IMG/VR virus record: IMGVR_UViG_3300031758_000068
Coordinates: 1 to 63,596 of that record
From: a virus
Taxonomy: Duplodnaviria; Caudoviricetes
Reading direction: 5' to 3' (one strand)
DNA: 63,596 nt
Under the pieces are notes generated by a model. That model was not told where the DNA came from, made no database searches, and saw only the letters and a program-made list of their open reading frames with translations. A program made the translations under genes and the position numbers. This document shows positions 19,029-44,967 of this stretch, one piece after another. How positions within the stretch are numbered: position 1 is the first letter of the stretch; every line of letters begins with the position of its first letter.

Positions 19029-22000
19029 ATGGCAGATAATACTCCAGGTTTCAACTCTCTAGATCCACTTGGTCCGGAGTATGGAAAAATAAATCAACCT
19101 ATCATAGATCCAAAAGGATTAAGTCCTTTTGAAGGTGATAGAATGCGTGATGCACCAATCAACTTTCCAGCAATGCCTGGTCTTGATCTTTCATTGCCTA
19201 ATAGGAATGTAAGACAGAATGCAGTTGGTGCTCCTGGAAAACCAGCTAATGCTAATAAACAAGCAACAGCACAAGATGTAATTAATGCACAAGGTAGTCT
19301 TATTAAGGCTATTGGTCAAGCTAGTCAAAGTAAAGATTCATATGCAAAGATCTATTCATATAATGCAGGACCTGATGGTAATGCTTTCTATAAGAGATAT
19401 CAAGCATATGGTCAAGAGAAGTTTGATGAAATTGGTTTCTCTCCGCTAAGAGATAATGAAGCTAACTTTAATGCTAGAACTACAAGATGGGATGACTTTA
19501 GTAGAATGATGACACACTCATTCTTTCCATTACTTGCTAGTGGTTTTACGTCTGGGCCAAGAAGTTTATTTAGAATGCTTCAAGGTGACTTTACTGGAGC
19601 TGACTTAGAAGATGCAAGACTATATGAAGAGGCTGCTGCTATAGGTCAATCAAGCAAAGGTGGAGTATTTGGGTTTGTCAATAATACAGTGATGAACTTT
19701 GGGTATACTGTTGGTATTATCAGTGAAGTTATACTTGAAGAAATGGGAGCTGCTTTACTTGCTCCAGGAACAGGAGGTACAAGTTTTGCAGCAGCTACAA
19801 TACGTAATCTTGAAAGAATAAAAGGTGTTGGTACGGCAATAAAAGGATTCAAAGCAATGAGAAATTCATTGTCTGAATTAAAAGGTATTCAAGCTGTAAG
19901 AAACTTTAAGAATTCTGTTAATGCAGGTTTGACAAGTAAAGTAGGTAGATTCTTGAATCCACTTGAGAATACATTTGAAGCATTACAACTTGCTAAAGCA
20001 GATAACCTTACAGGTTTAGCTGCTACATTTAAGACGGCAGGAGGTTTATATAGAGATATCCGTACAGTAAATATGGCAGTTTCAGAAGCTAGACTTGAAG
20101 CTGGTATGGTTGAGAATAGTGTGTATGATGATTTATACAATGAACACTATAACTTAACAGGAGAGGCTCCTGATAATAAGACTCAACAAGACATGCAGAG
20201 GCAAGCTAAGGATGCTTCTGGGAACACCTTCTATTGGAATGCAGGTCTTATCTATGCTACAAACAAAATCACATTTAATAATATCACAGGACCACGTGGT
20301 GGTATCCGTAAGTTTATCAAGTCAGTACAAGATGACTTTGTTAGTGTAGGTGGTGGTAAGTTTGGTAACGTAGGTAAGATTGTATATGATAATGTTGCTA
20401 AGAAGTTTGCTTATGAGGCTACTAATCTAAAGAACTTAGCTAAAAGCTGGTGGAAGAATCCTGGATTTAAAACTGCTGCGGGGACCATTGGTTACTTCAA
20501 AGCAAACATATCTGAGGGTCTTCAGGAAAACATGCAAGAGATTATCTCTAGAACTAATGAAGGTTACTACAAAGATAGCTTTAACAGTAAAGCAAGAAGA
20601 GCACAAGAGTATGCAAGAGGTGCAGCCTTATATGCTGGTAAGACACAGAGTGACTACTTTAAAAAAGAGATAGGTGAAGAATTTAGTATGAAAGGACTTG
20701 AGACATTTGGTTCAGGTTTCTTCATGGGTATGCTAGCTGCTCCATTGAATAACTCTATCCCATTCTTATCTAAACAATGGAATAGAATGTTTGACCAGAA
20801 AGGTTATACAGACTATGTTGAGAAGAAAGAAAAAATGGCAGAGGGTATTGTTGAAGTGTTAAATAACATTGACATGAAAGACTTTATCAAGTCAAACATG
20901 TTTAATCTTAGTGCACAAGACTTTATAAGTGAGATAAAAGCTAGAGCTTCTAAAAAAGAAGGAATGGATGCTGAGCTTGAAGGTCTTATTGACTCTGTGG
21001 AAATGATGCTTCAGACAAACACTACAGATGTGTTTACGGATCATCTTAATTCATTCTTTGACTTATCAGAAGATGAGTTTATGGAAGCAATGGGTAACAT
21101 TGAAAAGAGTGAGATACCTGAGTACAAAACAAGAATTACAAAAAGTATTGATAAGATAAAGTCCATCAAGAAGAAGTATGATTATTATAAACAAAAGAAA
21201 CCTAATCCCGTTACTGATGCTTATTTAAGCACACTAGATAAAGATAGTGAAGAGTATGAAGAGGCTGTAAGCTTGCAAGCAGGTTGGGACAGAGCTGTTA
21301 AAAATGCTGTATTTTTTAATGAGGCCTATGAAGATACTATGCAAAGAATGGTTGACATTCAGAGTGAATTTCTATCTAAGACCACTCTTAAGAATATGGG
21401 AGCAAGAGAGATGGGTCTTATATTCCAACCACAAAAAATCAAGAATGAGATTGAACTTCTTAAGAATGATATTGAGGTAGCTGAACAGGCTAAATCAACA
21501 TTACCTGGAGCAGCAGAAGACTTAGCTAAAAAGAAAAGAATGCTTGCTCAGATGGAAGACTATGCTGAGAAGTTTAAAGCATTTGATATCTTCTACAATA
21601 GAGCTGATTACTACAGTGCTCATAGAGATGAAGTTAAGAAACAATTGGGTATTGATCTTACTGATGAAGAAGTAGAAGCTATCTTCAATGAGCAATTGGG
21701 TACACTTGATGGGACTGAAAGCCAAGCAAAAGTACTTGGAGAATTAAAAGAATCTCTTGCTAATTATCTTAAAACAGTAGCTGACATTAATGAAGATACT
21801 GTATTTGATGAAAACATAGATCAAGGATTCACTCTTCTTACTGACCACTATAAGCTTTATAGAGAGTCTCTTGCTATGGTTGAGGCTATTAATACTCTAC
21901 ATGACCCGGGTAACTTTAATGATCTAGCAAGAAGAAACCAAGCTTGGATGAAAGATCTTTACAACAGAAGAGCTGAGTACTATGAGAAGATTGTAAAAGG

Positions 22001-25000
22001 TGAGATGGAAGATGTAGAGTTCAATGCTCTATTAAACAAGCTTGCTGATAGCGGTATTGCAGTTACTCCTGAAGACTTTGTAGAGTGGAAAAACAACCGC
22101 ACTATCCCTAAAGAGTTTATTGATATTGCTAACAAAAGAATCATACCACAGAATAGTGAGAAGTATGCTGCGGCAGTTGATCTATTTGAAAGAGCTACAG
22201 CTCTTAGAGATGATACTACTGTAGTTTCTACAGAAATACAGGATGCTGAATACAAGAGACAACTAGCTGCACTTGAAGCTGATATGCAGGCAGAGATTGA
22301 TGCTTTACCAAAAGTTGAAGAAAGACTTGTTACTGGTAACATTGAGCCTACTGCTAAAAGCAAATCATTTACTCTAAACAAAGTAAGAAAAGAACTTGCT
22401 ATTGGAGAACAAGCTGAGCTCGTAGATAGTAAAGGTGAAAGAATCATTGTCAGAAAAGATGAGAATGAGCAGTTAGTAGATGAGGCTGGTGAACTTGTAG
22501 ATAACAACAAAAGATATGTAGCCGGTGAGAAGTTCAGAATGTCTATGGTAGCTGATGAGGCTGCTGTAAAAGAGATTGAAGATAGATACACTGAGAAAAG
22601 AATTGCGCTTAAAGAGAAGTTCTTAGCTGCACAGGAGAATGTTGAGAAGCCACCGGTTGTAGAAGAGATGACCATAGCGGACATCATGACTAAAGAACCG
22701 GAGCTGTATCAACAACTCTTGACTGCATATGAAGCCATGATGGTTGAAGACATGGGAGTAGATGACTTTGCTACACTGAGTGACAGTCAAAGAGAAAACG
22801 GTCTAGCTAAGTTTATCAAGTCTGCTAAAGGGAAACTTATTGTAGATGCATACCAAGAGAAACAAAAGATTAGCAAGTCTGCTCAGACTGAAGCTAATGA
22901 GATGACCTTTACTCTTGATGGTACTTCATATGACACATCTACTATAACTTCTGTACCTCAATTAAGAAACTTTATTAAACAGTTTAACGCTAAGATTGCA
23001 ACCATTAAGAAAAAGAAAATTCAAGATTCTGCAGACACTGAAGCAATTCTTGATTTACAGTCTATGATTAATGGTATGAACTTACTGATTGATAAAAGAC
23101 TACAGTCTGGTGCCACTGATGAACTCAAAGCAGCAATTGCTAAGATCAAGGTGATGCAGTTGAATCAAAAGGATATTGTGAAACAAGATCTAAAATCAAT
23201 CACAATACCTGAAGATGATAGAGCTTGGAAAAAAGGTGATATCAGATATACTAAACAAGGTATCCGCGTTGAGTATAAAGGAGACAACCTGTATAATATT
23301 GCCGGAGAAGACAGAGTATTTGATACAAGTACACCTAATGCAAGTTCTTTCCAGAGAAGTATTGATACAGCTATCTATACTGCCAATCCACAAGAGGTAC
23401 CAAATGTGTACATGATTAAAGGGACAGAGCATGAGAGAGTATCATATGCAATCAAGAGCGTATATGATGTTTTTGGATTGAATGAGAATGACTTAGCTAT
23501 TCTTAATACTGCCTTTGACGTTACTATAGGTATAAAAGGATTTAATGAAGAATCTATAAAAGCATTTGTTGATGACTTAAGAGCTACTAAAGAAAGTGAT
23601 AACGGTAAACTAGGAGGATTCAGTACTTATACATTTGATGAGATAGAAGGAGATCTTCTTGGATTCTATGATTCAATGACTATCATGGGTGGTGCACCAA
23701 CAACTGCTCCTACTCCAGAGGCAGATCCTAAAAGAGCTGATGTAGAAGCAAGATTGAGAAAAATTGCAGTTGGATTAAAGGAAGAGGAAATACAACAGGT
23801 TTTAGATATACCAATAGAAAAGATAATTACTGAAGTAAAAAATAGAGCTAATAATAATCCAAATACACTTGTTGGTTCTCTTGTTGTATACTATGCTCTT
23901 AGATTAGAAGCTGAGATGGCAGCAATACGTATACCTGTAGGAGAAAAAACAAAATTAGTTGAGGTTGTAAAAGTAATAGATAAATTAACTCCTTCCGCTG
24001 ATTCTGATATAGAAGCCAAGAAAGTTGAAATAGAAAGAAGAAGGCAAGAAGAATTAGCTACGGCTAAGATAGAAATACCAAGGTATTTTAGATTTAGTGA
24101 ACTGGGAGGTGGAAAAGGTAAAAGTGGAGAAGCTCTTTCTTCTGTAGAAGCTGATAAAAATCGAGAGATACAAGAAAATTTTGAAAAACAACTTCAAGAA
24201 GGAGACAAATTAATTGAGCCAAACGGAGATACCTACTATTTTAGAAATGGTAAAACTGTAAAAAGAAATGGACAACCTAGGGGGATGGCTGACATAGGTG
24301 CGTTTTTGACAGGTGTAACAATAGATAGAACAGATAAAATCAATGCTAAATACGATGCTCAACTAGATGCTTTAGAAGCTACTACCCAAACAACTACAAC
24401 ACCAGGATCTGTAGACATAGAAGAGATAAGAAAGCTTGCTCTTAATACTGCAGCAGAGCAATCATATGAGGCTTCAAAAAAAGTAGGTAACTATACGGAT
24501 AAACAGTCTAAACGTATATTTGATGGTGAGGCTCCTGAATTTGATGAAGAGCGGATTACTAAAGAAGCTTATGATGAACTCTTTGATCCTAAGACAGGTT
24601 ACTTAACACAGCTTAAAGAACGGGCAGATAAGGGTGAGTTCTTCATTGCTACAGATATAGTAGTCTATGGAGAGGTTGTTGATGCAAATGGTAAGACACG
24701 TAGAATTGCCGGAGAGATTGACTTACTTATAGCAGACCGTGATGGTAAAATTCACATCATTGACCTTAAGACAGGAACCTATAGTAAGTGGCAATTTTAC
24801 AATAACAAAGGAACTATTGGTTACAATAAGAGAATTGAGAATACCCTTCAGCAGATGTCTTACTCTAACTTAGTATTTAATCAATATGGTTTAGAGACTA
24901 ACATTGGAATCTTACCAATTGAAGCTAAATATGATCCAGATTCTGCTGATGGTAAAATCATGAAAGCGGGTAGACCAACTACTAAAAAACTGTTTGAAGA

Positions 25001-25880
25001 TGATGACATGAGTCTTCTTGAAAGTAACAAGCCTTTCTCAGTTAAGCTTTACAAGAATCAGGAACTGCAACAACTAGATGAGAATGGAGAAGTAGTAAAT
25101 ACTACTGCTGAGGAACTAATTGGTAAAATCATTCCTAGAAAAGATGGTAAGTCTGGAGCTTCAGGTCCAATAAGACCAGATGAAGATTCAACTGAGGATG
25201 AAGCAGGACCAACAGGTGGAACTAATGCTCCTAACCCTACAGTTAATAAAGGAGCAAGACAAGATCAAGTAGATACTTACAATGATCTTAAAGAGCGTAT
25301 CATGATGGCTAATCTTGATGAACTTGATGAATTAAATACTGAACTGTTTGCAGCTAAAGTAAGTAGTGGTATCACTGATGAGCAATACAAAGATCTTGTT
25401 AATTTACTTGAAGAAGCAGAAACTGAATTAAGTATTGGAGAAATTGAGTCAGTTTCAATAAATAATGTTAAATTAAATAGTAAGCTAATTGCCATGGATG
25501 AGTTCACGACAACAACGCAAAAAGGCAAGACTACTATTATAAGCATTATTGGGGCTAATGAGAAAGTTGTGGTTGCTGAAATACTTAAAGACTCAATTAA
25601 AGTAAGAACACAAGATGGCAACCTGGTAGAGGTACCAGCTAACAAGATAAGTGATATCTTTGTTGATGCAGCCAAATATGAAGACGAACCAGGAGGACCT
25701 ATGGATACACCGTATAAACCAACCAAAGAAGAATCAATTGTCATTACTCAGACAAATGATAATGTGGCAACGTTTTTAGATGATAATGATGCTAAAACTG
25801 AAGCAGTTCAGAAAGGTCAATCTATGAATCCAAAAGATGCCCTTAATGACTTGAATAAAATTATAAATTGCCCGGGATAA
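19029..25880 (+). CDS. 2283-aa giant virion/ejection protein with hydrophobic N-terminal helices, coiled coils and a PD-(D/E)xK nuclease domain
   Basis: IAGEIDLL...IIDLKTG...QQMSY at 24705-24865. Gly/Ala-rich hydrophobic segments near 19690-19800 and 20705-20760. Confidence 0.8.
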   Translation: MADNTPGFNSLDPLGPEYGKINQPIIDPKGLSPFEGDRMRDAPINFPAMPGLDLSLPNRNVRQNAVGAPGKPANANKQATAQDVINAQGSLIKAIGQASQSKDSYAKIYSYNAGPDGNAFYKRYQAYGQEKFDEIGFSPLRDNEANFNARTTRWDDFSRMMTHSFFPLLASGFTSGPRSLFRMLQGDFTGADLEDARLYEEAAAIGQSSKGGVFGFVNNTVMNFGYTVGIISEVILEEMGAALLAPGTGGTSFAAATIRNLERIKGVGTAIKGFKAMRNSLSELKGIQAVRNFKNSVNAGLTSKVGRFLNPLENTFEALQLAKADNLTGLAATFKTAGGLYRDIRTVNMAVSEARLEAGMVENSVYDDLYNEHYNLTGEAPDNKTQQDMQRQAKDASGNTFYWNAGLIYATNKITFNNITGPRGGIRKFIKSVQDDFVSVGGGKFGNVGKIVYDNVAKKFAYEATNLKNLAKSWWKNPGFKTAAGTIGYFKANISEGLQENMQEIISRTNEGYYKDSFNSKARRAQEYARGAALYAGKTQSDYFKKEIGEEFSMKGLETFGSGFFMGMLAAPLNNSIPFLSKQWNRMFDQKGYTDYVEKKEKMAEGIVEVLNNIDMKDFIKSNMFNLSAQDFISEIKARASKKEGMDAELEGLIDSVEMMLQTNTTDVFTDHLNSFFDLSEDEFMEAMGNIEKSEIPEYKTRITKSIDKIKSIKKKYDYYKQKKPNPVTDAYLSTLDKDSEEYEEAVSLQAGWDRAVKNAVFFNEAYEDTMQRMVDIQSEFLSKTTLKNMGAREMGLIFQPQKIKNEIELLKNDIEVAEQAKSTLPGAAEDLAKKKRMLAQMEDYAEKFKAFDIFYNRADYYSAHRDEVKKQLGIDLTDEEVEAIFNEQLGTLDGTESQAKVLGELKESLANYLKTVADINEDTVFDENIDQGFTLLTDHYKLYRESLAMVEAINTLHDPGNFNDLARRNQAWMKDLYNRRAEYYEKIVKGEMEDVEFNALLNKLADSGIAVTPEDFVEWKNNRTIPKEFIDIANKRIIPQNSEKYAAAVDLFERATALRDDTTVVSTEIQDAEYKRQLAALEADMQAEIDALPKVEERLVTGNIEPTAKSKSFTLNKVRKELAIGEQAELVDSKGERIIVRKDENEQLVDEAGELVDNNKRYVAGEKFRMSMVADEAAVKEIEDRYTEKRIALKEKFLAAQENVEKPPVVEEMTIADIMTKEPELYQQLLTAYEAMMVEDMGVDDFATLSDSQRENGLAKFIKSAKGKLIVDAYQEKQKISKSAQTEANEMTFTLDGTSYDTSTITSVPQLRNFIKQFNAKIATIKKKKIQDSADTEAILDLQSMINGMNLLIDKRLQSGATDELKAAIAKIKVMQLNQKDIVKQDLKSITIPEDDRAWKKGDIRYTKQGIRVEYKGDNLYNIAGEDRVFDTSTPNASSFQRSIDTAIYTANPQEVPNVYMIKGTEHERVSYAIKSVYDVFGLNENDLAILNTAFDVTIGIKGFNEESIKAFVDDLRATKESDNGKLGGFSTYTFDEIEGDLLGFYDSMTIMGGAPTTAPTPEADPKRADVEARLRKIAVGLKEEEIQQVLDIPIEKIITEVKNRANNNPNTLVGSLVVYYALRLEAEMAAIRIPVGEKTKLVEVVKVIDKLTPSADSDIEAKKVEIERRRQEELATAKIEIPRYFRFSELGGGKGKSGEALSSVEADKNREIQENFEKQLQEGDKLIEPNGDTYYFRNGKTVKRNGQPRGMADIGAFLTGVTIDRTDKINAKYDAQLDALEATTQTTTTPGSVDIEEIRKLALNTAAEQSYEASKKVGNYTDKQSKRIFDGEAPEFDEERITKEAYDELFDPKTGYLTQLKERADKGEFFIATDIVVYGEVVDANGKTRRIAGEIDLLIADRDGKIHIIDLKTGTYSKWQFYNNKGTIGYNKRIENTLQQMSYSNLVFNQYGLETNIGILPIEAKYDPDSADGKIMKAGRPTTKKLFEDDDMSLLESNKPFSVKLYKNQELQQLDENGEVVNTTAEELIGKIIPRKDGKSGASGPIRPDEDSTEDEAGPTGGTNAPNPTVNKGARQDQVDTYNDLKERIMMANLDELDELNTELFAAKVSSGITDEQYKDLVNLLEEAETELSIGEIESVSINNVKLNSKLIAMDEFTTTTQKGKTTIISIIGANEKVVVAEILKDSIKVRTQDGNLVEVPANKISDIFVDAAKYEDEPGGPMDTPYKPTKEESIVITQTNDNVATFLDDNDAKTEAVQKGQSMNPKDALNDLNKIINCPG

Positions 25881-37800: not shown

Positions 37801-39007
37801 AAAACAAGGTAAACAAGTTGTATTTGATACTACTAATCTTACAAAAGATAAGAGAAGAACATTTATTGAAGCTATCAGAAAAGAAATACCTAATGCTAAT
37901 ATTCAGTATAAGCTTATGGCTTTGGATCCTGAATTAGCAAAACAAAGGATTAAAGCTGATATTGCTGCAGGTAAGAATAGAGCTAATGTTTCAGATGAAA
38001 CTATTGATAGACATGCTGCTTCTTACGCGCAAATGTTGGAAGACATTAAGTCTGAGGGTATGACTGAGTATGTTTCTAATGTTAAACCTACAGTAGATGT
38101 TATAGAATTAGAACCAGGTCTTGATTATATGCCAAAAGCTTTAACTGTAGAGGAACAAAAACAGTTCTTTGAGTTTGGTAAAGATGTACTTGAGAAAAAT
38201 GGTTATAATCCTTTCCCTGCTTATGTGATGGCTTCTGCTGGACAAATGGAATGGAGTCCTTTATTTGTAGTGGATAAAGAAGGTAAAGGTGTAGATAGAA
38301 ATGGTCCTTATAATGAGTCTATTATATCAATCAAGAAAAGTCTTGGTGGTCAAGATAGTAAAGATAAGAGATGGAACTACAATTATTACTTAAGTAACTT
38401 TGATGGTACGCCTATCATGCCTATTCCCTATAATATCATTAGCATATTGGAAAAGATTACAGGTCAGGATATGTCAGATTATGATACAGTACTTATTAAC
38501 TTGTACCCTATTGGTAGAACACTAGGTTGGCATCAAGATACTACTGAAGACTATAGAACTTTAGATAGAGATATTATCTCCGTATCCATTGGTGCTAATG
38601 CAGACTTTACTTATAATAATGCTAAAGGAATTGTATATGCGCCTAAACCTGGTACAAAAACATCAGGAACACAAACATTGTCAAGCGGTGATGTGATGGT
38701 ATTTGGTGGTGAATCAAGACTAGTTCAACATACTGTAACTAATGTACAAGGAACAACTAATTTAGGCCAGATTAATCTTAACAATTCTAATGTCAACAAA
38801 TACTTTAACGGAGGTTTGATGTTAGATAACTGGAGAATGAACTTTACCTTTAGAGTAGCCGCTGCAGAAAATAATAATGGTAAGAGATCTCTTGAAGAAG
38901 TGCAACAAGCGCCTGTAGCACCGGGAACACAGCTTACATTATTTGATGAAAACGCGCCTGAAGGACTACCTCCGTCTAAAAGATCTAGTAAAAAGTGTAA
39001 TAATTAG
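25880..39007 (+). CDS. Virion RNA polymerase of crAss-like type (~4375 aa) with a zincin domain and C-terminal ASCH, P-loop kinase and AlkB-like domains
   Basis: Catalytic GGDFDVD (DxDxD at 33794-33808) preceded by GPRIP, ESDGAGYIT near 32441, and HEAFH...EEMLAEDF at 28652. The ATG at 25880 overlaps the upstream TAA (TAATG) and is preferred to the TTG at 25868. Confidence 0.92.
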   Translation: MITCILLDNEISMLYTAVTAFVEDRVKNDKPLDAEDIMKQIYNKIAKSHSPEKAAEFVQHVPRIIIDLLNTAYQGKVNISPQAFGELWGASTAFYAEDGINTIIQRFKPKRKSKADSTAEKKTRKRSNPNKKTKDNLEEKEEPVEEPTEKRYKSFSALKGTIQEYLKRNPTTKRILVPEKVDSNRVVMQTTLKRLASTFDIDDDGLAAIKYQNEFLKLKAIRLDKFAKEFPNQIDATTMQEITRSEGMVNKGVASADVAQTADRVVIVVTDGKGNVLFFNEDGNIVSEKEGKPVYQFMYDVRKSGDRLVVTDIYGKEEKIATPELIAEKTYNKETDGPLKEYIEKIRKAQQEEFQRLYDLKKSVISGKDQELIFDGVSEGLTSDINNVYIPLNQLRSLGVDRKVFKTIETLKTPEGGLSKGMAVIEFNGTKFELDRSDLSSDIVNQIAEVLTNKNIPFRKRLDFAQQFLSNDINPTARRHTLIYDVDKKILNLSVYQYTTQESWEFVKETTDPVSEKTIKEFEAKRTPLNNQRYKFYYIAPGTVINGKEYKQGTYRLFEFNDSKGRGQNTTLYLSDDALAKATPEVLANVKAGIIDALERGYYQPKFERFMPTKLNYAEHLLDSGQYEVYDAATGKFQKKDYIDFLMNLESTVSVKTKDPGFYNAYMSFTIPSDANLERQETEEEIPSVFVPLNPFESGVEETDLNKLAHSIYKQLETYGQTSEWIDYLEDQGIVSNSANTGFYVANLLRQQFEKNAQNAYTKELANAITDVFIASRIGTEKQRAFINKGIEGLPSQPFTPPASSMASIIEQATVPEAPNPTNTNTNAAKETETDSGYDFDELERGEGLSGKTTRAQRRKANKWWNTSETGKKFQEVIELSHLANLVNSNAFAEFTVAGATLIDNSKLGQIKINPLKGSMVDVYHEAFHVFTQLFLTKAEKIVLYKKVKEYTDANGNQPYKNMTYFQIEEMLAEDFRTYAKDKTLKDNIPVKNTIFRRMLKFLQAMFSKIKGLLPISKQDVVVDSSSIPAINELFENLYYNKNNFLNNYQPLIKNIRFNVLNRGITKVNNSREDALSTTDSDLMVATMDSIISEEIDRLHDDRKDQGVTKSLKAGVINLLTSDKNRTVLYKNIKKRLTEDLEREKAKLFLQPNVKKFSEFTSLEDIKENAVGVMKNAKGEDKYIFLRSQIDDFSELSADIKKGARVKGEKYFDIPIVADFYVHKTLKSGKKTVDIMVVSQLSDAQVQYENYVKGGAKAFTEPVMKEGVEDSVLTQEQELVLDNVRILQATLDNFGDPEYWKDGRIPAGVIKYHLEKSRFTLLRKSYVDMEYDPDNDYESDDYEDEENEDGIPTNEEAELEAKNKELTNDSKVGKYSLQQLADNSTLYILSSLFYVDANGNNELDRFGHKKLSNFKDTWNIVAKSIAGMQDAELMYSTLNKLKNTYPILRQLVEKKLPNPKYDPERGMAITNSFEVDNIVGFWQTFRRPKVPYIQLMYFPIVETQTDYLTGNIEFVTVGYDSEMRYASVDGNTIIKRFQNEFASSPETEFISKVNNTSILNLDAAISKFSTKDGNLNTDKAIEFARAIGIYLDNTDALEKTINDNMNEYGIPYLFNIAKDIKNLQDKLKEPNNNLSTEAINLVNDFKKDPIGILKGKIRATLVPSVKAKKGVVEQKNIIVKLAELNAKLGYETMNFGIKNANGDTVYENIDINSLYMQVNGLNTMESLDEAWTKPEYSYMSYLDPTRNAYTQRSILLNSMFNIETFMYDRRGERTIELAMDDGTRIPGKNLGNTTGTLTPMGKFNQELTLMLKSGANNMFQNADKQTTPIIRLLGGIIGEKSERGLDDHLYVDTNMFAPQAGPGATAGELYAVNRVLIQNLATEFDRIVMVKENRDEVAKIKGPNQTVDYDKDGKPLMAAEVFVAFDDVLGKDTKEALYELAEDWDGDIVEYLHSPENANLWNTIQNDIIKYFRAEVALNMSLFEDFSYDKVLVEKTGIPEVPADTIDKAAAELERKGAIRKTLMTSFTYNSWIHNFEIIHLFFGDISQFNHLKEELQKRNAGNTSGGLGFMNSPFFNNFINNVFNAAQKNAKTGDIVGPTTYAQALNVRDNAQDTDKDYDNFVYNGRLNTGVIADAERESVYIKEMSESWREMYEEDYKEAIPNEAERKAFIDKLIEYDVDPYMKMTESDGAGYITIDAYRTLKKASKQWTYEQEQLYKKLVAGEKLTPKEVKEFFPPYKLQYYGPLHETVISVVGMHKFALTPLVPGALGGAQLQKLHEEMLRSNRQYVLFGSGSKVSTVTLDGNFDDVFLNDKQKAIKTGDDFQTANNIIYVEYLKDVTSVNSTFKKKVTAGTQQRVMFVDNFFKDGQIVNPEENKELVEGYVQNSRNITNVLIAELLNEIGFVYKDGMYQASGNSVEKFVNTIKKGLGKKAVPKHLIDLVGVNVGGQATMDYSLHPIADDIEALATALIQKRIIRQKAKGEPLIQVPSTLYNGLWDTDFELITDEKEIEKLLGSNNLPFYRRGKKDPKTGKYGPSSMMKVAITMQADFENLYQRLDLNGKKIAESPDPLALLNKLIQNDEWLDKDDNRFAISVTGPRIPTDGINLVEGAEVWHFFEPQMGNIVVVPTEIVAKTGGDFDVDKLNFEYAYIDGDGFSLSKPLSNAEFKAKLTEATEKIAQRAEDRKKGKKKAKGEEEEVIITPSAIINAQKKALHNQSIQLRLDILRLPDTFANLTKPNSTYLVEQYAELVAAAQPYKKLDNRTIKGYKFDPKNKDKAVMSSTRTLEIGYNMHKFEVNLSSGQLTLGITAKQNKQHVIDNEIGAKMPDSYYETVWKDGKYVPTKRRYLVDLHFNHNTTTNKAGKEVISLAGLQTRKGTRITSINSHNLNGILDRAKKSFPGELNMVPETMPIINHLIEAGVDEEQALYFVNLPLIKKYVKLQREFADVYGKIRMVAPDNSSMNKFQAAEKTVAEYEASGAKEYRLVNDIRLQATIDRLMVTLNELNPTTQISVYFGQKVGYVQMPASQLKKGLQSGDVPPFVVRGINLYDEKLAFPLQKQLYKPSSSIVSTANYYYAKRIAFDKVFGSQEAVFNTNLITDSITKNDTTSRLALAFLLHYIQIEHQLKGMQEAAALMSPDTSFVKTIQQVRNRQQRIADLKKSGKIDDSLMDDFEKKSILGSFRIDQLMMDTIEPLFPLRLDRDISEYIEDATNRFSNTIAARFGQGIEGKERFSSMFNNAVVTSLFQNTLSNFPNAKIIDEDLMLPEGYKGYKISINDKQAEAVKIENGVISINIELTKSDFADGMYLDNVNKPESYLGRGLFAFDAERDPFVRVIPKDKGGLLAGTSFRYFSNYVLFTVQRELLRTNNPIEKVREEYMFQDLMSQFNLDEPAAYEMYLVKRALRNSFNPGYVMGLSQFNYTDDVMRLLNQFPVLKQKFGIASQLAPESRTKTDKNIIVLNDSKATGDVADGYHNDLVQLGDITIRKGSDAENKYISDTFKFFSEMMYYQHGIGYSSFGFVKVYDSAGYITLMRTVGINYLQNPIDENQLEGITINLLDNSDIFKNYVVTSGFKRMVTDTAFEEYDEEDMLNELEQMNRKAKNPLVAEVIEAINAVETTNPFRAKDIEMFKDADAFIGFETTLNDPRLDAKSSTKVYRQAFGNLANKGKYTPDEVVALSGSGNFNRGGVDLTTAIQEDFKNKYKPEILRAIDSGVSTFLLGSYNDQRNLQDYYIQKYLESKGYTASTVVVGKYEYYKFTKEGAVASGDIESLKKAADALPSIEQNFADGTGGRTMEPQFKGKSTMDLILSGDRTRTTRAKTDISRMIKDYGLTKIEDLVGMVIRMTDKKGNLAYTRITKVAPFTQEYQDATWQKEGWTKDVTDKNVGNYPYAIEFELVKEPVVNRPASSEADVILPIGTSGSGKSTFISSLPQENLVVISPDEMRIEFTGDIDNKSKDKEIYTEAAKRAISAIKQGKQVVFDTTNLTKDKRRTFIEAIRKEIPNANIQYKLMALDPELAKQRIKADIAAGKNRANVSDETIDRHAASYAQMLEDIKSEGMTEYVSNVKPTVDVIELEPGLDYMPKALTVEEQKQFFEFGKDVLEKNGYNPFPAYVMASAGQMEWSPLFVVDKEGKGVDRNGPYNESIISIKKSLGGQDSKDKRWNYNYYLSNFDGTPIMPIPYNIISILEKITGQDMSDYDTVLINLYPIGRTLGWHQDTTEDYRTLDRDIISVSIGANADFTYNNAKGIVYAPKPGTKTSGTQTLSSGDVMVFGGESRLVQHTVTNVQGTTNLGQINLNNSNVNKYFNGGLMLDNWRMNFTFRVAAAENNNGKRSLEEVQQAPVAPGTQLTLFDENAPEGLPPSKRSSKKCNN

Positions 39008-39022
39008 TATATTTATAATATA
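39003..39022 (+). promoter_or_regulatory. TATATTTA promoter-like box upstream of the gene at 39034
   Basis: ATTAGTATATTTATAATATA matches the motif at 10121 and 16018. Confidence 0.55.
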
Positions 39023-39033
39023 AAATAAGTGAG

Positions 39034-42000
39034 ATGCCTTGTAGAATTAAGATAAAGGAGAACCTTGAAGGAGAAGTATATGACTTGGCAAGACCAGGTA
39101 CATATGGTACTGCTAAACAAGCAAGGGATCTAGCTGTGCGCATTAATCAAATGTACAATGACAGTGTTGTAAGATTTACAAGATCTGAAGCTGACATACT
39201 TAATATTGATGTCACAATTCCAGACTCTTTAATTGATAGATACTTTGCTAATGAGTTAAGACTTGAAGAAGAGGAGGCAAGACATGCTCTAAGAGCGGAT
39301 GCTGTAAGAGCAGGAGTTGATTATTCAGATGATTACCTAAAGCAGAATGAAGTAGATGACTATGACTTAGATATTGCTAAGCAGTTTGAACTTTCTGTAA
39401 AGGGTTCTCAAAGAGCAAGAGCTAATGAGATTGCTTTCAAGTTAGGTGAGAAGTTTAGAGTAGCCTTTGACATGGAGTATCAGCAAGTATCAGCTGACTA
39501 TGCTTATGAGTTACTTAAGGATACTAAGACACCGTATAACGGTGAACCGGCATTCTACTTTAACAACATAGTGTACTTTGTAGATGATAACTTTAATGTT
39601 GAGAACCTATTTCACGAGTACTCTCACCCTTTCTTACAAGCAATAAGAAGAGATAACCCTGTTTTATTTGAGAAGTTGTTTGCCCAGTTGTCTGCTACAT
39701 TTGCAGGTGACCGTATTATTGCTGACTTAGTAAATGAGCAGAAACAAAAGGTAGAGTCTAAGAGACTTACCGGTGATAGACTAAAAGAAGAAGCTCTTGT
39801 CCGTGCCATGGAGTACAGTGCCATGAAGAAGATTGACAAGGTTACTGAATCAGACAGTGCGTTCAAAGCATTTATGACTAATCTTCTATATGCTATCAAA
39901 AAGATTATCCAAAAGCTTGTAGGTAGAACAGACTTAAGCAAGTTGAGTGCTAATACAACTTTGGATGAGCTTGTTGACATGATGTTGACTAAAGAGTTCA
40001 AGATTGAAACCCAGGCGCTGAAGAATTCTGATGTGGCTGAGTTTGCTAGAAACGCTAAGACAGACATAGAAAAGCTAGTAGAAGAATTAAAAAATACTGA
40101 TGCTCAAGATTTCATTGACACCTTTAATAAGTTCTATACAGGGATTGACTATCAGCTAAAGCAGTTAGAGAAAACACCAAAGGATGTACAGAGAATGCTG
40201 CAGAAAGGTCAAGAGGATGGAAGCATTGATGGTAGAAGACTGTTGCGCAATGTAAAAAACTACATGAGCAAAGGTCAGACTGTATATACTAACCTTTCTG
40301 ATATTAATCCTGAAGATTTAATTGAAGCAATTAGAGCTCAAGAAAAAGAGTTCAACAAGCGCGCAATCAACATGATCAAGAGTATCAATGAGATTGAAGT
40401 ATTTGCCCGCAGGATTCAGACTATAGTAAAAGACATGCGTACCAAGAAGATACATCTTAAACCGGATGGTATGGCTGTGGTAGATTACTATATCTCATTC
40501 ATGGAAGAACAGCAACGTTTTATTGATGACATTCTAAAAACACTTAAGCTAGATGAGGAAACTTTATTTACTAAGAAGCTATTATCTATTGAGCGTGTAA
40601 TTAAGAACTCTTTGGGTGATGCATCTAAGTTGAGATTTGACGGAATGGTTAACTGGTTTACTGAAAACGCTGACTTAGTGAATGAATCTATTCAAGGTAA
40701 GCTTGAGACTAAGTTGATGTTGATACTGTCTCCGCAAGGTTTTACTGAACAAGAAATAACAGACTATATTACTAAGCTAAAAACAAGAGGTAACTTAGAT
40801 AAGTTTTCAAAAGCAGATATTGATTTAGGAAGACCTGTAACAAGTGACACATACATAGCAGAAGCAGTAAGAAACTTTGGAAAGAAATATATTACCGCAG
40901 AGAGTATTGCTAGAATGCTTAAGGGAGAAGGTGGTGATATAAATACTATTAGTGCTAACATCTTGTCCTATACAAATATCAATGACCAAATGGGTATTTT
41001 CTATAGAGAGATGAAGAATGAGTTGTCTAATGCTGCAGCTAAGTCTCATGAACAGGAAATAGAATTGATAAAGGCTATTCTTCCTCATCTTAATGCTCTA
41101 GGGTATAACCCTAATAAAACCCACATGCTTGCAGACTTGATGACATTTGTTGATACTATTGCTGTTGTAGAAGACGGTGAATTAAAACGGATGCAAATTA
41201 GATCTGTGCTAGATAAATTTATTAATTGGCGTGCGGATAAGGGGGAACTGGAATATGCTTTGGAAGAAGCTAGAGAAAAGAAGGATAGAGCTGCAATTAA
41301 GAAAGCCATGCAGGATCTATGGAACTTCCATAATACTTACATGAATAGACAATACAAGGATGAAGTCTATAATGTTCAGAATATATGGAGACAAACCAAT
41401 ACTGTATATGACCCTGTGACTAAGACTGATTTAGTAGTGTCCGCAGATGAATCTACAGAGGCATATCTTGAAAGACAAGAGGCACTTGACCAAATGAGTC
41501 TCTATAGTTCTACAAGTGTGTTTACTGAATTGGATGACCTCTATGAAGAACCAGAATCTAAAGAAGCGCGCAGAGAGTATCAGCAGTTATATGAAGTCTA
41601 TGATTCTTTTGGTGTACCAAAGTCTGAAGAGGAAAGAAAAAAAGTTCTAGTACGTCAGTTGTACAGAAAAGAATCTAAGAAGTTCTATGAGCCAAAGGTT
41701 AACTATGACCAGTTCCAGAGAGACTTTGACAACTTTGTACTTACAGAACTTGCATCTGAGGGTATTGATATGGATGATGTGGACTTTGACAAGTACATTC
41801 AAAAGTTCATTGACAAGAATACACGTTTGGCTTATTCTGATAAGTACTATGAAGACCTTGAGAAGATCTTTGATACTATTAGAACTCTTACAGAAAAGGC
41901 TAAAAACAATACTGTATCTCTACAACTTGCAACTCTGTATAAGCAAAGAGCTATTCTAGTTAATGTGGTTACAGATAAGAACGGTACTCCTGATGGTATT

Positions 42001-44967
42001 GAACTCAACCCTGCTCAAAGAAAGAAGTTACTAGAAATAGAAAAAGAAATTGTAGAGCTTCAGGAAAAGTATGACAGACAAACCGGTATCAGTAAAGAAG
42101 ATATGGCTTGGATGGCTAATATAGAAAAGCAAATCAAGCTAAATAAAACTATTGATCCTGTAGATATGGAAAAGTACAAGACACTTTTCAATATCAAAAA
42201 TGACTTGGGTCTCAGCAAACAAGAGAATGCTGACTTGAGAGCTGCCTTTGCTGAGCTTTCTGACTTGAGAGAGACAACTGCTACTGATGCTTATACTGCT
42301 GCATTTGATAATACTATAGGAGATGCAACAGCAATCCTAGAAGAGAAAGGAATGCTTGAGGCAAAAGACTTTCCAGGTGGTAATATTGTACAGTTAACGA
42401 GAGAGAATGCTGATGAGTGGATTAATTCACCTATCATAAAAAAGGTAATGGCAGTAAACCCAGAGTTTGCTACATGGTTTAAAGCTAACCACTACCTGAA
42501 GCCTTCATATGACCAAGCTACAAATTCATACATACCAAAGTACGTTAGAATAAAAGCATGGAGTGTTACAAGACCGGTTGATCCCGAGCACTATCAGATG
42601 ACTGATCTCATTAACCCTATTACTAAAAAACCAATCAGAGTTCAAGGTGTACCTGTAGGTAAATATTCTTACCGTAGTATTAAAGATGAGTACCGTACTA
42701 TACCTAGAAATGCTAACCGTGATAGTTATGTAGGTACCATCATTGACAACCAAGGAAACTATTTGCCTAAAGTAGTTCCTATTGGTAGCCCTAATGATAA
42801 GTACATGAACAAAGAGTACTTTGAATTAATGAAGAATCCTAACTCTGCAAGATTTAAGTTGATTGAGGAGTACAAGAAGCAGTATCTTAAGATACAAAAG
42901 GATAGACCATACAGCTCTAAGATGTATCTTGATACACCAAGAATGCGTATCAATGAGAACATGGAATATATGCAATCTGGTAATGCAAGAAATGATGCCT
43001 ATACTAAGTTGGAGCAACTTAAACAAGGTGCAACTTCTCTATTTAAATCTACTACGGATGACCGTGAGTTTGGTTTGAATGCTGATGTTTCTACTCAATT
43101 GATTGCTACTGATATCAACGGTAAACCTATTACCCGTATACCAGTAAGAGGTATGTATAAACTACAGCTTTCTGAAACTACAACAGATATACTTGGGTCA
43201 ACAAGTACTTACTTGTATTCATTGAATGAACAAGAAGCATTGATTAAGAATGAGCCATTAGGAAAAGCTATTCTTAAAATCCTGAGTGATCCTGAGAATG
43301 GATTGAAGGACATGAGCAAAGTGAGCCGTGATATCCAGAAGACCAGAGGTGAGGAAGTATTCTTGCCAGCTGCTACTAAGACATATCAAAGACTAAAAGC
43401 TAATCAATACTACATAGAAAGATTATTCTATGGACAAGCTGCATCTGACTTCCAACAAAACAACCCTGCGCTTACTAAGGTTATCAAAGCTCTCATGAGT
43501 AAAGCAAGTGGTTCATTCATCAACTTGGATATACAGTCTGCATTGAAGAACCGCTATGGTATGACATTCCAGAAGATGGTAGAAGCTGCCGGTGGACAGT
43601 ATATCAGCTACCAATCTATGGCGCGTGGTAAACTTAAAGCTTTCAAAGCTACAGTAGAGTTATCTTCTAAAGGTATTTACTATAAGGCAATGGGACCTAA
43701 GAGTTTACTTATCCAAATGATTGAAAGATTTGACCCGGTAACAGGGAAAACAAAGCAAGACTTTGGTAAATCTAACTCTAGAACTTTCATAAAGGATATG
43801 CTTGACATGACCTTCTTGTTAGATGGTAGAAAGCTATTGGAATTCAACAGTGGTTTGGAAATCTTCTTTGGTATGATGGAGCACAAACAAATTCCAATTA
43901 CAAGAGCAGATGGGAAAGTAGAAAAGATCCGCTACGTTGATGCTTGGGAACTTGGTGATGACCAGATTATCAGACTTAAAGAAGGTATTGATCCTGAGTG
44001 GGATCAAAAACCTATCTCTCATGAGTATGATGGTACTGAAACTCTAGATGAAATTGCTAAGAAATACTCAACTACAGTAGAAGCAATTAAAACTAAGAAC
44101 AAAATCAAAAGCGCTAGTGAGTTAGAACCAGGGGACAAGATTGTAATCTCTACTGCTAAGTTATTTAATGACTTCAAATTAAAGATTCAAGGTACAGGGA
44201 AAAGACTCAACGGTATGATAGCTGAGGAAGATAACCCTCAAGCTAACCAGTATATCCTCTATAACCTATTCTCCTTCTATAAGAAGTTTGCTCTACCTAT
44301 GTTCCTTAACAGATTCCAAACGGATTTGTCTAAAGAGAACAGATGGGGTGAAGTCTATGACTGGGATATGGGAACAACAACCAAAGGATACTATATCACA
44401 GGTATACAGTCAATCATTAAATTGATTAGAAATTTCAAAGAAGCATACCCTGCTATGGATGTAGAAGAAAAGACTGCAATCAAAAAGATGGCTTCTGAAT
44501 CTCTTATGTTGTTAGCTATGGCTCTTGTGGGTATGTTCTTGTTTGGATATGATCCAGGTGATGAAGATAGATTTAATAAACTCAAAGCTATGGAAGAAAG
44601 ATATGGTGCTTTAGGTTGGTTATCAAATGAAGCATTGTACCTATTAATCATGACTAAGAGAGAGAACCAGATGTTCATTCCATTACCGGGTATAGGATTT
44701 GATGAGTGGCTTAGTCTTACAGACAGTACTTCAATTGCAACAGGACCAACATTAGAACTCTATTCTAAACTGTTCATGGATATTATATACTGGGTAAGTG
44801 GAAGTGAGAAAGCAAGATACAAACAAGATGTAGGACCATATGCTTGGCAGACAGAAGGTAGTCTTAAACTATGGAATCACTTTGCAAGTGTATGGGGTAT
44901 CAAAGGTAAGAACGTAGCACCAATCTGGGCAATTAAGAAAGCGGAAGCGTTTGACGCACTCAATTAA
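39034..44967 (+). CDS. 1977-aa giant virion/ejection protein with N-terminal zincin, inserted LysM domain and C-terminal hydrophobic helix
   Basis: HEYSH at 39613 with downstream KEEAL. LysM consensus TLDEIAKKYSTTVEAIKTKNKI...LEPGDKIVI at 44020-44148. Hydrophobic LMLLAMALVGMFLFG near 44503-44547. Confidence 0.8.
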   Translation: MPCRIKIKENLEGEVYDLARPGTYGTAKQARDLAVRINQMYNDSVVRFTRSEADILNIDVTIPDSLIDRYFANELRLEEEEARHALRADAVRAGVDYSDDYLKQNEVDDYDLDIAKQFELSVKGSQRARANEIAFKLGEKFRVAFDMEYQQVSADYAYELLKDTKTPYNGEPAFYFNNIVYFVDDNFNVENLFHEYSHPFLQAIRRDNPVLFEKLFAQLSATFAGDRIIADLVNEQKQKVESKRLTGDRLKEEALVRAMEYSAMKKIDKVTESDSAFKAFMTNLLYAIKKIIQKLVGRTDLSKLSANTTLDELVDMMLTKEFKIETQALKNSDVAEFARNAKTDIEKLVEELKNTDAQDFIDTFNKFYTGIDYQLKQLEKTPKDVQRMLQKGQEDGSIDGRRLLRNVKNYMSKGQTVYTNLSDINPEDLIEAIRAQEKEFNKRAINMIKSINEIEVFARRIQTIVKDMRTKKIHLKPDGMAVVDYYISFMEEQQRFIDDILKTLKLDEETLFTKKLLSIERVIKNSLGDASKLRFDGMVNWFTENADLVNESIQGKLETKLMLILSPQGFTEQEITDYITKLKTRGNLDKFSKADIDLGRPVTSDTYIAEAVRNFGKKYITAESIARMLKGEGGDINTISANILSYTNINDQMGIFYREMKNELSNAAAKSHEQEIELIKAILPHLNALGYNPNKTHMLADLMTFVDTIAVVEDGELKRMQIRSVLDKFINWRADKGELEYALEEAREKKDRAAIKKAMQDLWNFHNTYMNRQYKDEVYNVQNIWRQTNTVYDPVTKTDLVVSADESTEAYLERQEALDQMSLYSSTSVFTELDDLYEEPESKEARREYQQLYEVYDSFGVPKSEEERKKVLVRQLYRKESKKFYEPKVNYDQFQRDFDNFVLTELASEGIDMDDVDFDKYIQKFIDKNTRLAYSDKYYEDLEKIFDTIRTLTEKAKNNTVSLQLATLYKQRAILVNVVTDKNGTPDGIELNPAQRKKLLEIEKEIVELQEKYDRQTGISKEDMAWMANIEKQIKLNKTIDPVDMEKYKTLFNIKNDLGLSKQENADLRAAFAELSDLRETTATDAYTAAFDNTIGDATAILEEKGMLEAKDFPGGNIVQLTRENADEWINSPIIKKVMAVNPEFATWFKANHYLKPSYDQATNSYIPKYVRIKAWSVTRPVDPEHYQMTDLINPITKKPIRVQGVPVGKYSYRSIKDEYRTIPRNANRDSYVGTIIDNQGNYLPKVVPIGSPNDKYMNKEYFELMKNPNSARFKLIEEYKKQYLKIQKDRPYSSKMYLDTPRMRINENMEYMQSGNARNDAYTKLEQLKQGATSLFKSTTDDREFGLNADVSTQLIATDINGKPITRIPVRGMYKLQLSETTTDILGSTSTYLYSLNEQEALIKNEPLGKAILKILSDPENGLKDMSKVSRDIQKTRGEEVFLPAATKTYQRLKANQYYIERLFYGQAASDFQQNNPALTKVIKALMSKASGSFINLDIQSALKNRYGMTFQKMVEAAGGQYISYQSMARGKLKAFKATVELSSKGIYYKAMGPKSLLIQMIERFDPVTGKTKQDFGKSNSRTFIKDMLDMTFLLDGRKLLEFNSGLEIFFGMMEHKQIPITRADGKVEKIRYVDAWELGDDQIIRLKEGIDPEWDQKPISHEYDGTETLDEIAKKYSTTVEAIKTKNKIKSASELEPGDKIVISTAKLFNDFKLKIQGTGKRLNGMIAEEDNPQANQYILYNLFSFYKKFALPMFLNRFQTDLSKENRWGEVYDWDMGTTTKGYYITGIQSIIKLIRNFKEAYPAMDVEEKTAIKKMASESLMLLAMALVGMFLFGYDPGDEDRFNKLKAMEERYGALGWLSNEALYLLIMTKRENQMFIPLPGIGFDEWLSLTDSTSIATGPTLELYSKLFMDIIYWVSGSEKARYKQDVGPYAWQTEGSLKLWNHFASVWGIKGKNVAPIWAIKKAEAFDALN

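Follow-up and report, generated by a model that had tools for sequence, protein, structure and literature searches.

Why do three giant proteins, encoded one after another, retain only four cysteines (Cys), and why does each of these stand at an end that faces a neighbouring protein? This question is raised by a 63,596-base single contig, the virus record IMGVR_UViG_3300031758_000068 of IMG/VR, which was analysed over its whole length and is called the window in the following text. The contig is read as a divergent crAss-like phage, and the three proteins, designated A, B and C in the order of their genes, include in B the putative virion RNA polymerase (RNAP). The Cys pattern is real and extends across the order Crassvirales. 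The explanation favoured here, which is held to be probable with considerable room for doubt, is that A, B and C constitute the virion-packaged RNAP module of the phage, with ends that are docked head-to-tail and stapled by terminal disulfides.

Cysteines of the three giant proteins

The translations of A, B and C contain four Cys in 8,635 residues: at the third position from the end of A (-3), at residue 4 and position -3 of B, and at residue 3 of C. The only Cys of A is residue 2281 (ending ...KIINCPG; codon TGC, 25869-25871), and its N-terminus has none. Protein B holds one at residue 4 (MITC; TGT, 25889-25891) and another at residue 4373 (ending ...SKKCNN; TGT, 38996-38998), and the only Cys of C is residue 3 (MPC; TGT, 39040-39042). 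The initial annotation of this DNA had located four Cys at the junction-facing ends and none elsewhere; the codon positions are exact on translation, and the full translations reveal no internal Cys that had been overlooked.

Such scarcity extends beyond the three proteins. Three open reading frames (ORFs) that precede A contain 0 Cys in 2,931 amino acids (aa), and 4 Cys are counted among the 11,566 residues of the whole block from 10150 to 44967. For comparison, the window's 15 minus-strand ORFs have 44 Cys in 4,717 residues (0.93%). At this rate, the binomial probability of four or fewer Cys in 8,635 residues is 1e-29. For all four to lie by chance no more than 5 residues from the four ends that face a junction, the probability is about 3e-11. 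Ejected proteins of the N4 gp50 type are free of Cys; A, B and C differ from them in that four Cys remain, and the terminal ones are conserved.

Conservation in related loci

In a collection of 5.8 billion proteins, the A tail had 25 matches, the C head 30 and B 42. Of the 25 A-tail matches, 22 carry a single Cys, at position -1 to -3. Cys stands at residue 3-5 in 29 of the 30 C matches and is the sole Cys in 26. Among the B matches, it is found at residue 4-8 in 37/42 and within the last 5 residues in 40/42. The misses are truncated calls, N-terminal extensions, fused forms or sharers of a single domain. The one C exception, P0034, is an N-terminally truncated fragment, and P0067 and P0083 begin about 21-25 residues into the B alignment. 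Two B matches lacking the C-terminal Cys share only the kinase domain with B; P0093, P0096, P0008, P0013 and P0018 have a single domain in common with B or A, and P0094 and P0095 carry N-terminal extensions and keep the C-terminal Cys. Window B was aligned with 24 of its 42 matches, picked among those having both ends (alignment A1). The invariance of C4 and C4373 in this alignment is therefore partly due to selection, and the unselected values are the fractions given above.

The profile of alignment A1 was then applied to IMG/VR, where it retrieved 78 loci with up to 10 kb of flank on each side. In each locus, the chain was traced over plus-strand ORFs, starting one protein upstream of B and continuing as long as the ORFs were contiguous, and a junction was counted as carrying Cys on both sides when one occurred in the last 10 residues upstream and one in the first 12 residues downstream. 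This was the case at 149/149 junctions (117/117 distinct). The upstream, or donor, Cys of the distinct junctions lies at -1 in 63, at -2 in 31, at -3 in 16 and further in within 7. The downstream, or acceptor, Cys occupies residue 3-6 in 116/117, and once residue 10, from an upstream ATG. The outer ends behave differently: N-terminal Cys occurs in 0/62 complete first proteins and C-terminal Cys in 0/63 complete last proteins. In total, 549,089 chain residues contain 298 terminal versus 25 internal Cys. The protein encoded upstream of A has 0 Cys in 62/62 loci (58,095 aa). The initial annotation had predicted terminal Cys that are conserved in homologs and only at inter-gene junctions, and had noted that the free ends, the N-terminus of A and the C-terminus of C, lack them; both statements hold in the window and in the 78 loci.

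The rule does not depend on the length of the chain. The complete chains comprise 38 of three proteins and 9 of four, and in one further locus (L009) B is followed by three more proteins, apparently a five-protein chain. Every middle protein carries both Cys whatever the chain length, and the Cys number of a chain is always even (2, 4, 6 or 8 with chain length). An apparent exception, L055, shows an MVNC start directly after A and a frame change about 50 codons in.

The constraint on these Cys can be seen against the divergence of the surrounding sequence. For 54 of the 78 loci, the A and B ends are both present; with identical junctions collapsed and the window included, they give 55 rows (alignments A2 and A3). 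In the 55 aligned A tails of 300 aa, the mean column identity is 17% and Cys is the sole invariant column, and the 55 B heads have the invariant columns C4, A54, P62, G283 and G291. None of the 47 distinct A tails has histidine (His) among its last 12 residues, and just 4/40 B heads have it among their first 12. Throughout the 78 loci, the spacing between paired Cys codons varies from 8 to 54 nucleotides (nt) and the intergenic gap from -11 to +32 nt, which indicates that the constraint acts on the protein.

Other families of Crassvirales and gene fusions

The same distribution is found in the cultured phages phi14:2 and crAss001. In phi14:2, the only Cys of gp67 (1797 aa) is its last residue, gp66 (2180 aa), the RNAP that has been crystallised, contains two and no more, at 3 and 2179, and the only Cys of gp65 (1421 aa) is residue 3. 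In crAss001, gp47 has a single Cys at 2339 of 2341, gp50 has Cys at 5, 1334 and 2404 of 2412, and the only Cys of gp49 is residue 5; cr128_1 repeats this pattern. Both crAss001 and cr128_1 encode gp47 on the strand opposite to gp50 and gp49. A signal at the nucleotide level of the junction was considered as well and is excluded by the opposite-strand gp47 and by the variable Cys-codon spacing and gaps. A scan of IMG/VR with crAss001 gp50 retrieved 52 loci, almost all 94-100% identical to crAss001, which repeat its pattern.

Gene fusions provide a natural comparison. In the Intestiviridae jaberico, cr271_1 and cr8_1, the counterparts of gp50 and gp49 are fused into proteins of 4098-4622 aa. These fusions have an N-terminal Cys at 3 or 5 and no C-terminal Cys, and the gp47-like protein has its Cys at -2. 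In the Suoliviridae cr4_1 and cr118_1, A and B are fused instead; the fused protein lacks an N-terminal Cys but carries one at -4, and residue 3 is the only Cys of the next protein. No Cys pair is present in the fused forms where the fusion occurred. A single internal Cys is present in cr4_1 (2180) and in cr118_1 (2041), and mapping of the A/B fusion at the level of BLAST is too coarse to call either a junction relic. Thus, the initial annotation was right to expect that junction Cys vanish where genes are fused, and the tabulation that it proposed finds the rule kept in phi14:2, crAss001, cr128_1, jaberico, cr271_1, cr8_1, cr4_1 and cr118_1.

Two further observations concern the integrity of these genes. 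The annotated giant coding sequences of cr4_1 (L084:10971-29859) contain 38 and 18 in-frame stops under table 11. Stop-codon recoding has been reported for some crAss-like phages (PMC7886860), and the in-frame stops of cr4_1 are consistent with it; the terminal-Cys rule is still kept at the junction. Among the crAss001-like contigs (L088-L139), several have the gp50 ORF in pieces of 1440-1641 aa or lengthened to 2551-2608 aa, a sign that the RNAP gene may have taken up insertions or been interrupted in a population that is close to clonal.

Modular ends, adapters and predicted docking

In about a sixth of the related loci, an additional small protein is encoded between B and the last protein. 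These adapters have 242-308 aa; their residue 3 and their final residue are Cys. Their N-terminal module is homologous to the first ~170 residues of last proteins of the 2000-aa type, and their C-terminal module to the final ~140 residues of the B proteins of three-protein chains, where a last protein of the 1100-aa type follows directly. Such a two-module composition implies that adapters join a B with one kind of tail to a last protein with the other kind of head. When the ends were clustered, donor cluster 1 (ending ...LLKAIC) was found to precede acceptor cluster 1 (MLxCPxK...) in 43/43 cases, 29 of them on B and 14 on adapters.

The junction between A and B was examined by complex prediction, with the last 200 aa of A and the first 300 aa of B and their own 55-row alignments. 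The interaction prediction score from aligned errors (ipSAE) was 0.65, 0.65 and 0.72, versus 0.21 for the best control. In calibration, the ipSAE mark was reached by 58/80 solved complexes and 2/110 mismatched pairs, and it is only a rough guide when own alignments are used. The docking runs share at least 60% of their contacts, with a partner predicted local distance difference test (pLDDT) value of at least 68. The predicted interface joins residues 2228-2282 of A to residues 1-24, 40-72 and 95-105 of B, the latter belonging to a confident six-helix domain (8-107). The Cys-bearing peptides, A 2278-2282 and B 1-17, both lie inside it. In the model, the head of B has a pLDDT of about 90 over residues 11-110, followed by a disordered linker (113-156), and Foldseek against the PDB returned 0 matches for it at E <= 0.001. 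Since the head has no fold match in the PDB, the docking score is unlikely to reflect a memorised structure. The prediction lends support to the docking and does not amount to binding. The suggestion that the proteins associate head-to-tail in gene order is thus strengthened by the complex prediction, the adapters and the co-occurrence of the modules.

Proposed chain and alternative explanations

In the favoured explanation, Cys would have been purged from A, B and C at all but four positions, as in proteins that are threaded from the capsid across the host envelope, and the remaining four would be functional. Each C-terminal tail would bind non-covalently to the helical head at the N-terminus of the following protein in gene order, and after docking, the Cys located 1-8 residues from the C-terminus would join the Cys located 3-6 residues from the N-terminus, most likely by a disulfide. 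A, B and C would form one linear thread that follows the gene order, and split genes would yield the equivalent of the fused polyprotein found in some crAss-like phages. A link at the extreme ends would keep the thread unbranched and allow it to pass a narrow tail channel, the lack of other Cys would prevent wrong cross-links, and reduction in the host cytoplasm would separate the parts. We infer the disulfide chemistry, its timing and its roles in stoichiometry, ejection order and release from the pattern described above. In its widest form, the explanation would apply to all Crassvirales: the RNAP cargo would be one covalent, unbranched thread of two to five proteins with a cognate docking code, a terminal disulfide at each junction, passage through the tail in gene order and a redox-timed release or activation of the RNAP. 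This wider claim could equally well prove right or wrong.

Several points weigh against the proposed chain. The covalent link is proposed from sequence and prediction methods, which do not reach as far as a disulfide. The complex prediction covers the A-B junction, and there Cys4-Cys2281 is not among the best-defined contacts; only the terminal peptides are placed in the interface. Assembly takes place in the reducing environment of the cytoplasm, and the host is in many cases a gut anaerobe, which leaves the oxidant and the timing unexplained, and the published crAss001 disulfides come from purified virions (PMC10172136). Start codons and N-termini are predicted throughout. The 78 loci belong to one clade (29-39% identity to B) and include near-duplicates. 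The donor Cys lies 7-9 residues from the end in gp50 of the crAss001 type, and Cys avoidance is not absolute: the fused proteins of Intestiviridae hold 3 to 14 further Cys, and in a subclade of A (L005, L006, L020, L043, L045, L068 and L079) a second, conserved Cys lies inside the protein at residue 1015-1020, whereas no other internal Cys recurs in the 78-locus set. Finally, one junction in cr108_1, between ORFs of 2967 and 792 aa, lacks Cys on either side. It is the only rule-breaking junction seen, nine named Crassvirales genomes included; the ORFs lie about 300 nt apart (L002:22562-22871) and the RNAP core itself is interrupted. This break may represent an intron, a split gene, a frameshift or an assembly error, and introns and disrupted RNAP genes have been reported in crAss-like phages (PMC7886860).

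Other explanations of the terminal Cys keep more or less of this scheme. The closest one accepts the docking and replaces the disulfide by another clasp, either a metal bridged by two thiolates or a different thiol link. The evidence from conservation, asymmetry and docking is shared with the disulfide, and a metal bridge needs no oxidant, so that it would form under the reducing conditions of the cytoplasm or in an anaerobic gut. However, no further ligand is conserved: Cys stands alone as the invariant column of the A tails, these tails lack His, and two thiolates by themselves would limit the choice to linear two-coordinate metals. A disulfide is preferred to a metal because no second ligand is conserved, the Cys of a chain are always even in number, and crAss001 particles contain inter-protein disulfides; cryo-electron microscopy resolved these between subunits of the tail hub, in the ring proteins R1/R2 and in the gp57 dimer (PMC10172136). 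A clasp of another kind is accordingly rated as unlikely, with a small share of the probability. Somewhat less probable still is the view that the terminal Cys pair elsewhere, with the capsid interior, the portal, other cargo or a second copy of the same protein, or that they are modified, for instance by acylation. Which Cys pair cannot be read from sequence alone, and the crAss001 virion has many structural disulfides. This view fails to explain why the free ends are never occupied (0/62 and 0/63), why every middle protein has both Cys, why Cys are lost on fusion, and why there are adapters and a 43/43 co-occurrence of modules. Regarding modification, a bacterial lipobox consists of a signal peptide followed by Cys at about residue 15-25. 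The lipoprotein lipobox was rejected for the present proteins, which have Cys at residue 3-6 and no signal peptide.

The order of pairing can also be questioned, since counts of 1, 2, ..., 2, 1 are equally compatible with a middle protein closed on itself and the first protein joined to the last. Such an arrangement is regarded as very unlikely: in the complex prediction, the tail of A is docked on the head of B, the donor module for a last protein of the MLxCPxK type always lies directly upstream, on B or on an adapter (43/43), and a closed loop of about 4000 residues would not be threadable as a single strand. Just as little probability is assigned to Cys that act as catalytic nucleophiles in processing or ligation between neighbours, in the manner of an intein or a transpeptidase. 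Terminal Cys are typical of such chemistries, and the phi14:2 preprint suggested cleavage of the fused polyproteins of some phages (10.1101/2020.03.07.982082). The geometry, however, is the reverse of that in a split intein, as the present Cys stand at the outer tips of the docking segments. In a split intein, the N-intein starts with the catalytic Cys, some 100 residues ahead of the C-terminus of the first protein, and a +1 Cys follows the C-intein. Split inteins and trans-splicing were rejected as candidates because Pfam finds no intein or Hint domain in A, B or C and the Cys lie at the extreme termini. The remaining explanation, by chance, relaxed terminal selection, an artefact of start or stop calling, or a nucleotide signal at the junction, might appeal to predicted starts and to the weak constraint that often applies to terminal residues. 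It is nevertheless next to impossible in view of the chance estimate for the window, the 149/149 junctions, free ends that never carry Cys, a sole invariant column at 17% mean identity, variable spacing and the opposite-strand gp47. Chance and annotation artefact were tested directly and rejected on junction statistics and conservation. Hence, the docked and disulfide-linked chain remains the preferred explanation.

Gene layout and features of the window

The plus-strand block of giant ORFs extends to 44967 and is followed by minus-strand replication genes, which encode a DNA polymerase, a primase, a DnaB-like helicase, an exonuclease and an ATPase. The GC skew reverses near 45 kb, and the best tblastn matches of the window are all Crassvirales. 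The layout is that of Crassvirales: a same-strand giant block with a gp47-like protein and the RNAP, and then a replication block on the opposite strand. No close relative was found by megablast of positions 25000-40000 against phage records, nor when the A tail and the C head were each scanned against IMG/VR as single proteins. Protein C had no tblastn match among deposited phages, and PHROGs returned nothing for A or C. The coordinates of the features are collected in Table 1.

Table 1. Features of the window and adapter ORFs in related loci (numbers preceded by L designate related loci and carry their own coordinates)
Feature	Position	Strand	Basis or remark
Cys-free ORF 5' of the chain, 1215 aa	10150-13797	+	translation
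Cys-free ORF 5' of the chain, 728 aa	13802-15988	+	translation
Cys-free ORF 5' of the chain, 988 aa	16051-19017	+	translation
Protein A, first link, 2283 aa	19029-25880	+	crAss001 gp47-like virion protein
PD-(D/E)XK-like segment of A, residues 1829-1924	24513-24800	+	PF12705, 24.2 bits vs cut-off 22
Donor tail of A, residues 2228-2282, including the only Cys of A	25710-25874	+	predicted interface with B head
Protein B, middle link, 4375 aa, putative virion RNAP with accessory domains	25880-39007	+	
Acceptor head of B, residues 1-110: six-helix domain behind an extended N-terminal peptide with Cys4	25880-26209	+	
HExxH of B, residues 925-929	28652-28666	+	invariant in alignment A1
DFDVD catalytic motif of B, residues 2639-2643	33794-33808	+	
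AAA_33 kinase-like domain of B, residues 3914-4050	37619-38029	+	Pfam
AlkB-like 2-oxoglutarate (2OG)-Fe(II) oxygenase of B, residues 4163-4325	38366-38854	+	Pfam
Protein C, last link, 1977 aa	39034-44967	+	LysM domain; no C-terminal Cys
LysM domain of C, residues 1669-1705	44038-44148	+	Pfam
Adapter locus	L006:19436-20359		
Adapter locus	L009:10905-11807		
Adapter locus	L028:21589-22461		
Adapter locus	L047, 242-aa ORF between 19573 and 20309		
Adapter locus	L053:19929-20687		

The three Cys-free ORFs that precede the chain have no Pfam or PHROG match and are candidate cargo or ejection proteins outside the Cys chain. The third of them (988 aa) is a conserved neighbour of A. In most loci (L005-L082), the Cys-free protein 5' of A opens with the octapeptide MATYLQGV or a near variant (16051-16074 in the window). 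Proteins that start in this way are otherwise divergent, and the conservation of the N-terminal octapeptide is striking. Protein A is 27% identical to crAss001 gp47 over about 200 aa, around the PD-(D/E)XK-like segment. The start of B was assigned with regard to its homologs: an alternative TTG start lies upstream at 25868, and the ATG at 25880 is preferred because it yields the MI[TSN]C N-terminus common to them.

Judged from profile comparison, B is a virion RNAP of the phi14:2 gp66 type, with two barrels. The profile of alignment A1 matches gp66 by hhalign with a probability of 99.9% and E = 3e-33 over 953 columns, which span about 1772-2900 of B and 607-1661 of gp66. In alignment A1, the catalytic motif keeps D2639, D2641 and D2643 in every row. 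When residues 2001-3200 of B were run with phmmer as a single sequence against the PDB, there was no match, and only the profile comparison with gp66 worked. That B is packaged in the virion and delivered into the host is presumed on the grounds of its homology, the position of its gene and its depletion of Cys; such packaging is known for phi14:2 and crAss001 only. A variable enzyme cassette (37619-38854) follows the RNAP core and precedes the donor tail of B; in the window it consists of an AAA_33/zeta-toxin-like kinase and the AlkB-like oxygenase. Precomputed Pfam assignments of the B homologs P0056-P0097 include RNase H (PF00075), HD/RelA-SpoT (PF01966, PF13328), superfamily-1 helicase domains and others. 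The enzymes of the cassette look as if they were co-delivered with the polymerase. The N-terminal third of B contains the motif YHEA[WF]H (HExxH, zincin-like), which as a scan pattern found 368 relatives. In phi14:2, a zincin-like protease domain has been placed in gp65 (10.1101/2020.03.07.982082), so that this domain occupies different members of the chain in different lineages. Protein C and most of its homologs have a LysM peptidoglycan-binding domain near the C-terminus, which suggests a periplasmic action of the last link.

The annotations of cr108_1, jaberico, cr8_1 and cr128_1 (L002, L003, L086 and L087) include thioredoxin-like genes, located in early or replication regions. A regex scan of the window in six frames found no thioredoxin-type motif [WFY]C[GPA][PHY]C. 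A phage-encoded thiol oxidoreductase could have a bearing on the making or breaking of the link.

Relation to known systems

The closest known systems are gp67/gp66/gp65 of phi14:2 and gp47/gp50/gp49 of crAss001. They resemble the window in the gp66-type core of B, in the gp47 match of A and in the Cys rule. The window differs from them in that identity is only 21-27%, B is nearly twice as long, with kinase-like and AlkB-like domains, and C carries LysM and has no BLAST match to either crAss001 gp49 or phi14:2 gp65. By mass spectrometry, crAss001 gp47, gp49 and gp50 are virion cargo, located in a cargo zone of the capsid, and they must partly unfold for exit through the tail (PMC10172136). The crAss001 atlas leaves the cargo proteins unresolved and considers their exit order as likely set by packing and mutual interactions (PMC10172136). 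In phi14:2, gp65, gp66 and gp67 are all virion proteins, and it is gp66 that accompanies the DNA into the cell and transcribes the early genes (10.1101/2020.03.07.982082). These descriptions agree with the initial annotation, which took large crAss-like proteins to be ejected via the tail.

A more distant likeness is offered by Schitoviridae (N4 gp50-52 and DEV gp71-73), where a giant virion RNAP and its companions are expelled through the envelope and are depleted of Cys. N4 gp50 and DEV gp71 are without Cys, which has been read as avoidance of periplasmic disulfide catalysts (PMC11445570); the absence of Cys from the periplasm-crossing N4 virion RNAP, presupposed at the outset, is confirmed by this source. 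In Schitoviridae, however, the depletion is total and the few Cys were judged to be annotation errors (PMC11445570), whereas in A, B and C it spares the termini that face a junction. The polymerases themselves are a further difference, as the two-barrel RNAP of the window is unrelated to that of Schitoviridae. The N4 virion RNAP is T7-like.

Within crAss-like phages, the transcription block also occurs as a fused polyprotein, with the same domains in the same order as in the split genes. The fused polyprotein has been proposed to be cleaved (10.1101/2020.03.07.982082). The Cys rule suggests the opposite logic, in which split genes would be re-joined after translation. The tail disulfides of crAss001 are comparable to the proposed links in being inter-protein and within a crassvirus particle; they differ in that they employ internal Cys in a symmetric, static assembly, whereas the proposed links would join the termini of departing proteins. 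Two functional analogies exist outside phages. In AB toxins, a translocated chain is tethered by one disulfide and freed by cytosolic reduction. In modular polyketide and non-ribosomal peptide synthases, giant proteins are ordered in gene order by short terminal docking elements. Neither involves homology, and neither makes a multi-protein thread that passes a phage tail.

No description of terminal Cys or of linked cargo in crAss-like phages was found in the literature searched, from which subscription journals and supplements were excluded. Term searches in PMC10172136, the preprint 10.1101/2020.03.07.982082 and PMC7886860 did not find the word cysteine in the context of cargo. The belief that a linkage by terminal Cys had not been described is thus upheld within the same range of literature. 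The proposed mechanism is new and can be tested directly in two cultured phages: phi14:2 and crAss001 show the same Cys pattern, which makes the experiment feasible now.

Biological significance

A conserved end-to-end link would provide a concrete model, cheap to test, of how an RNA-polymerase cargo of more than 700 kDa is stored and delivered, with its stoichiometry, packing and ejection order, and it would explain why genes can be freely fused and split in evolution. If the wider claim is true, the cargo of Crassvirales would be a thread of about 0.6 to more than 1 MDa, with dedicated two-module adapter proteins. The first/middle/last pattern of Cys is a sequence signature by which cargo chains and gene boundaries can be annotated in metagenomes, and it points to natural orthogonal docking ends with a redox-reversible lock.

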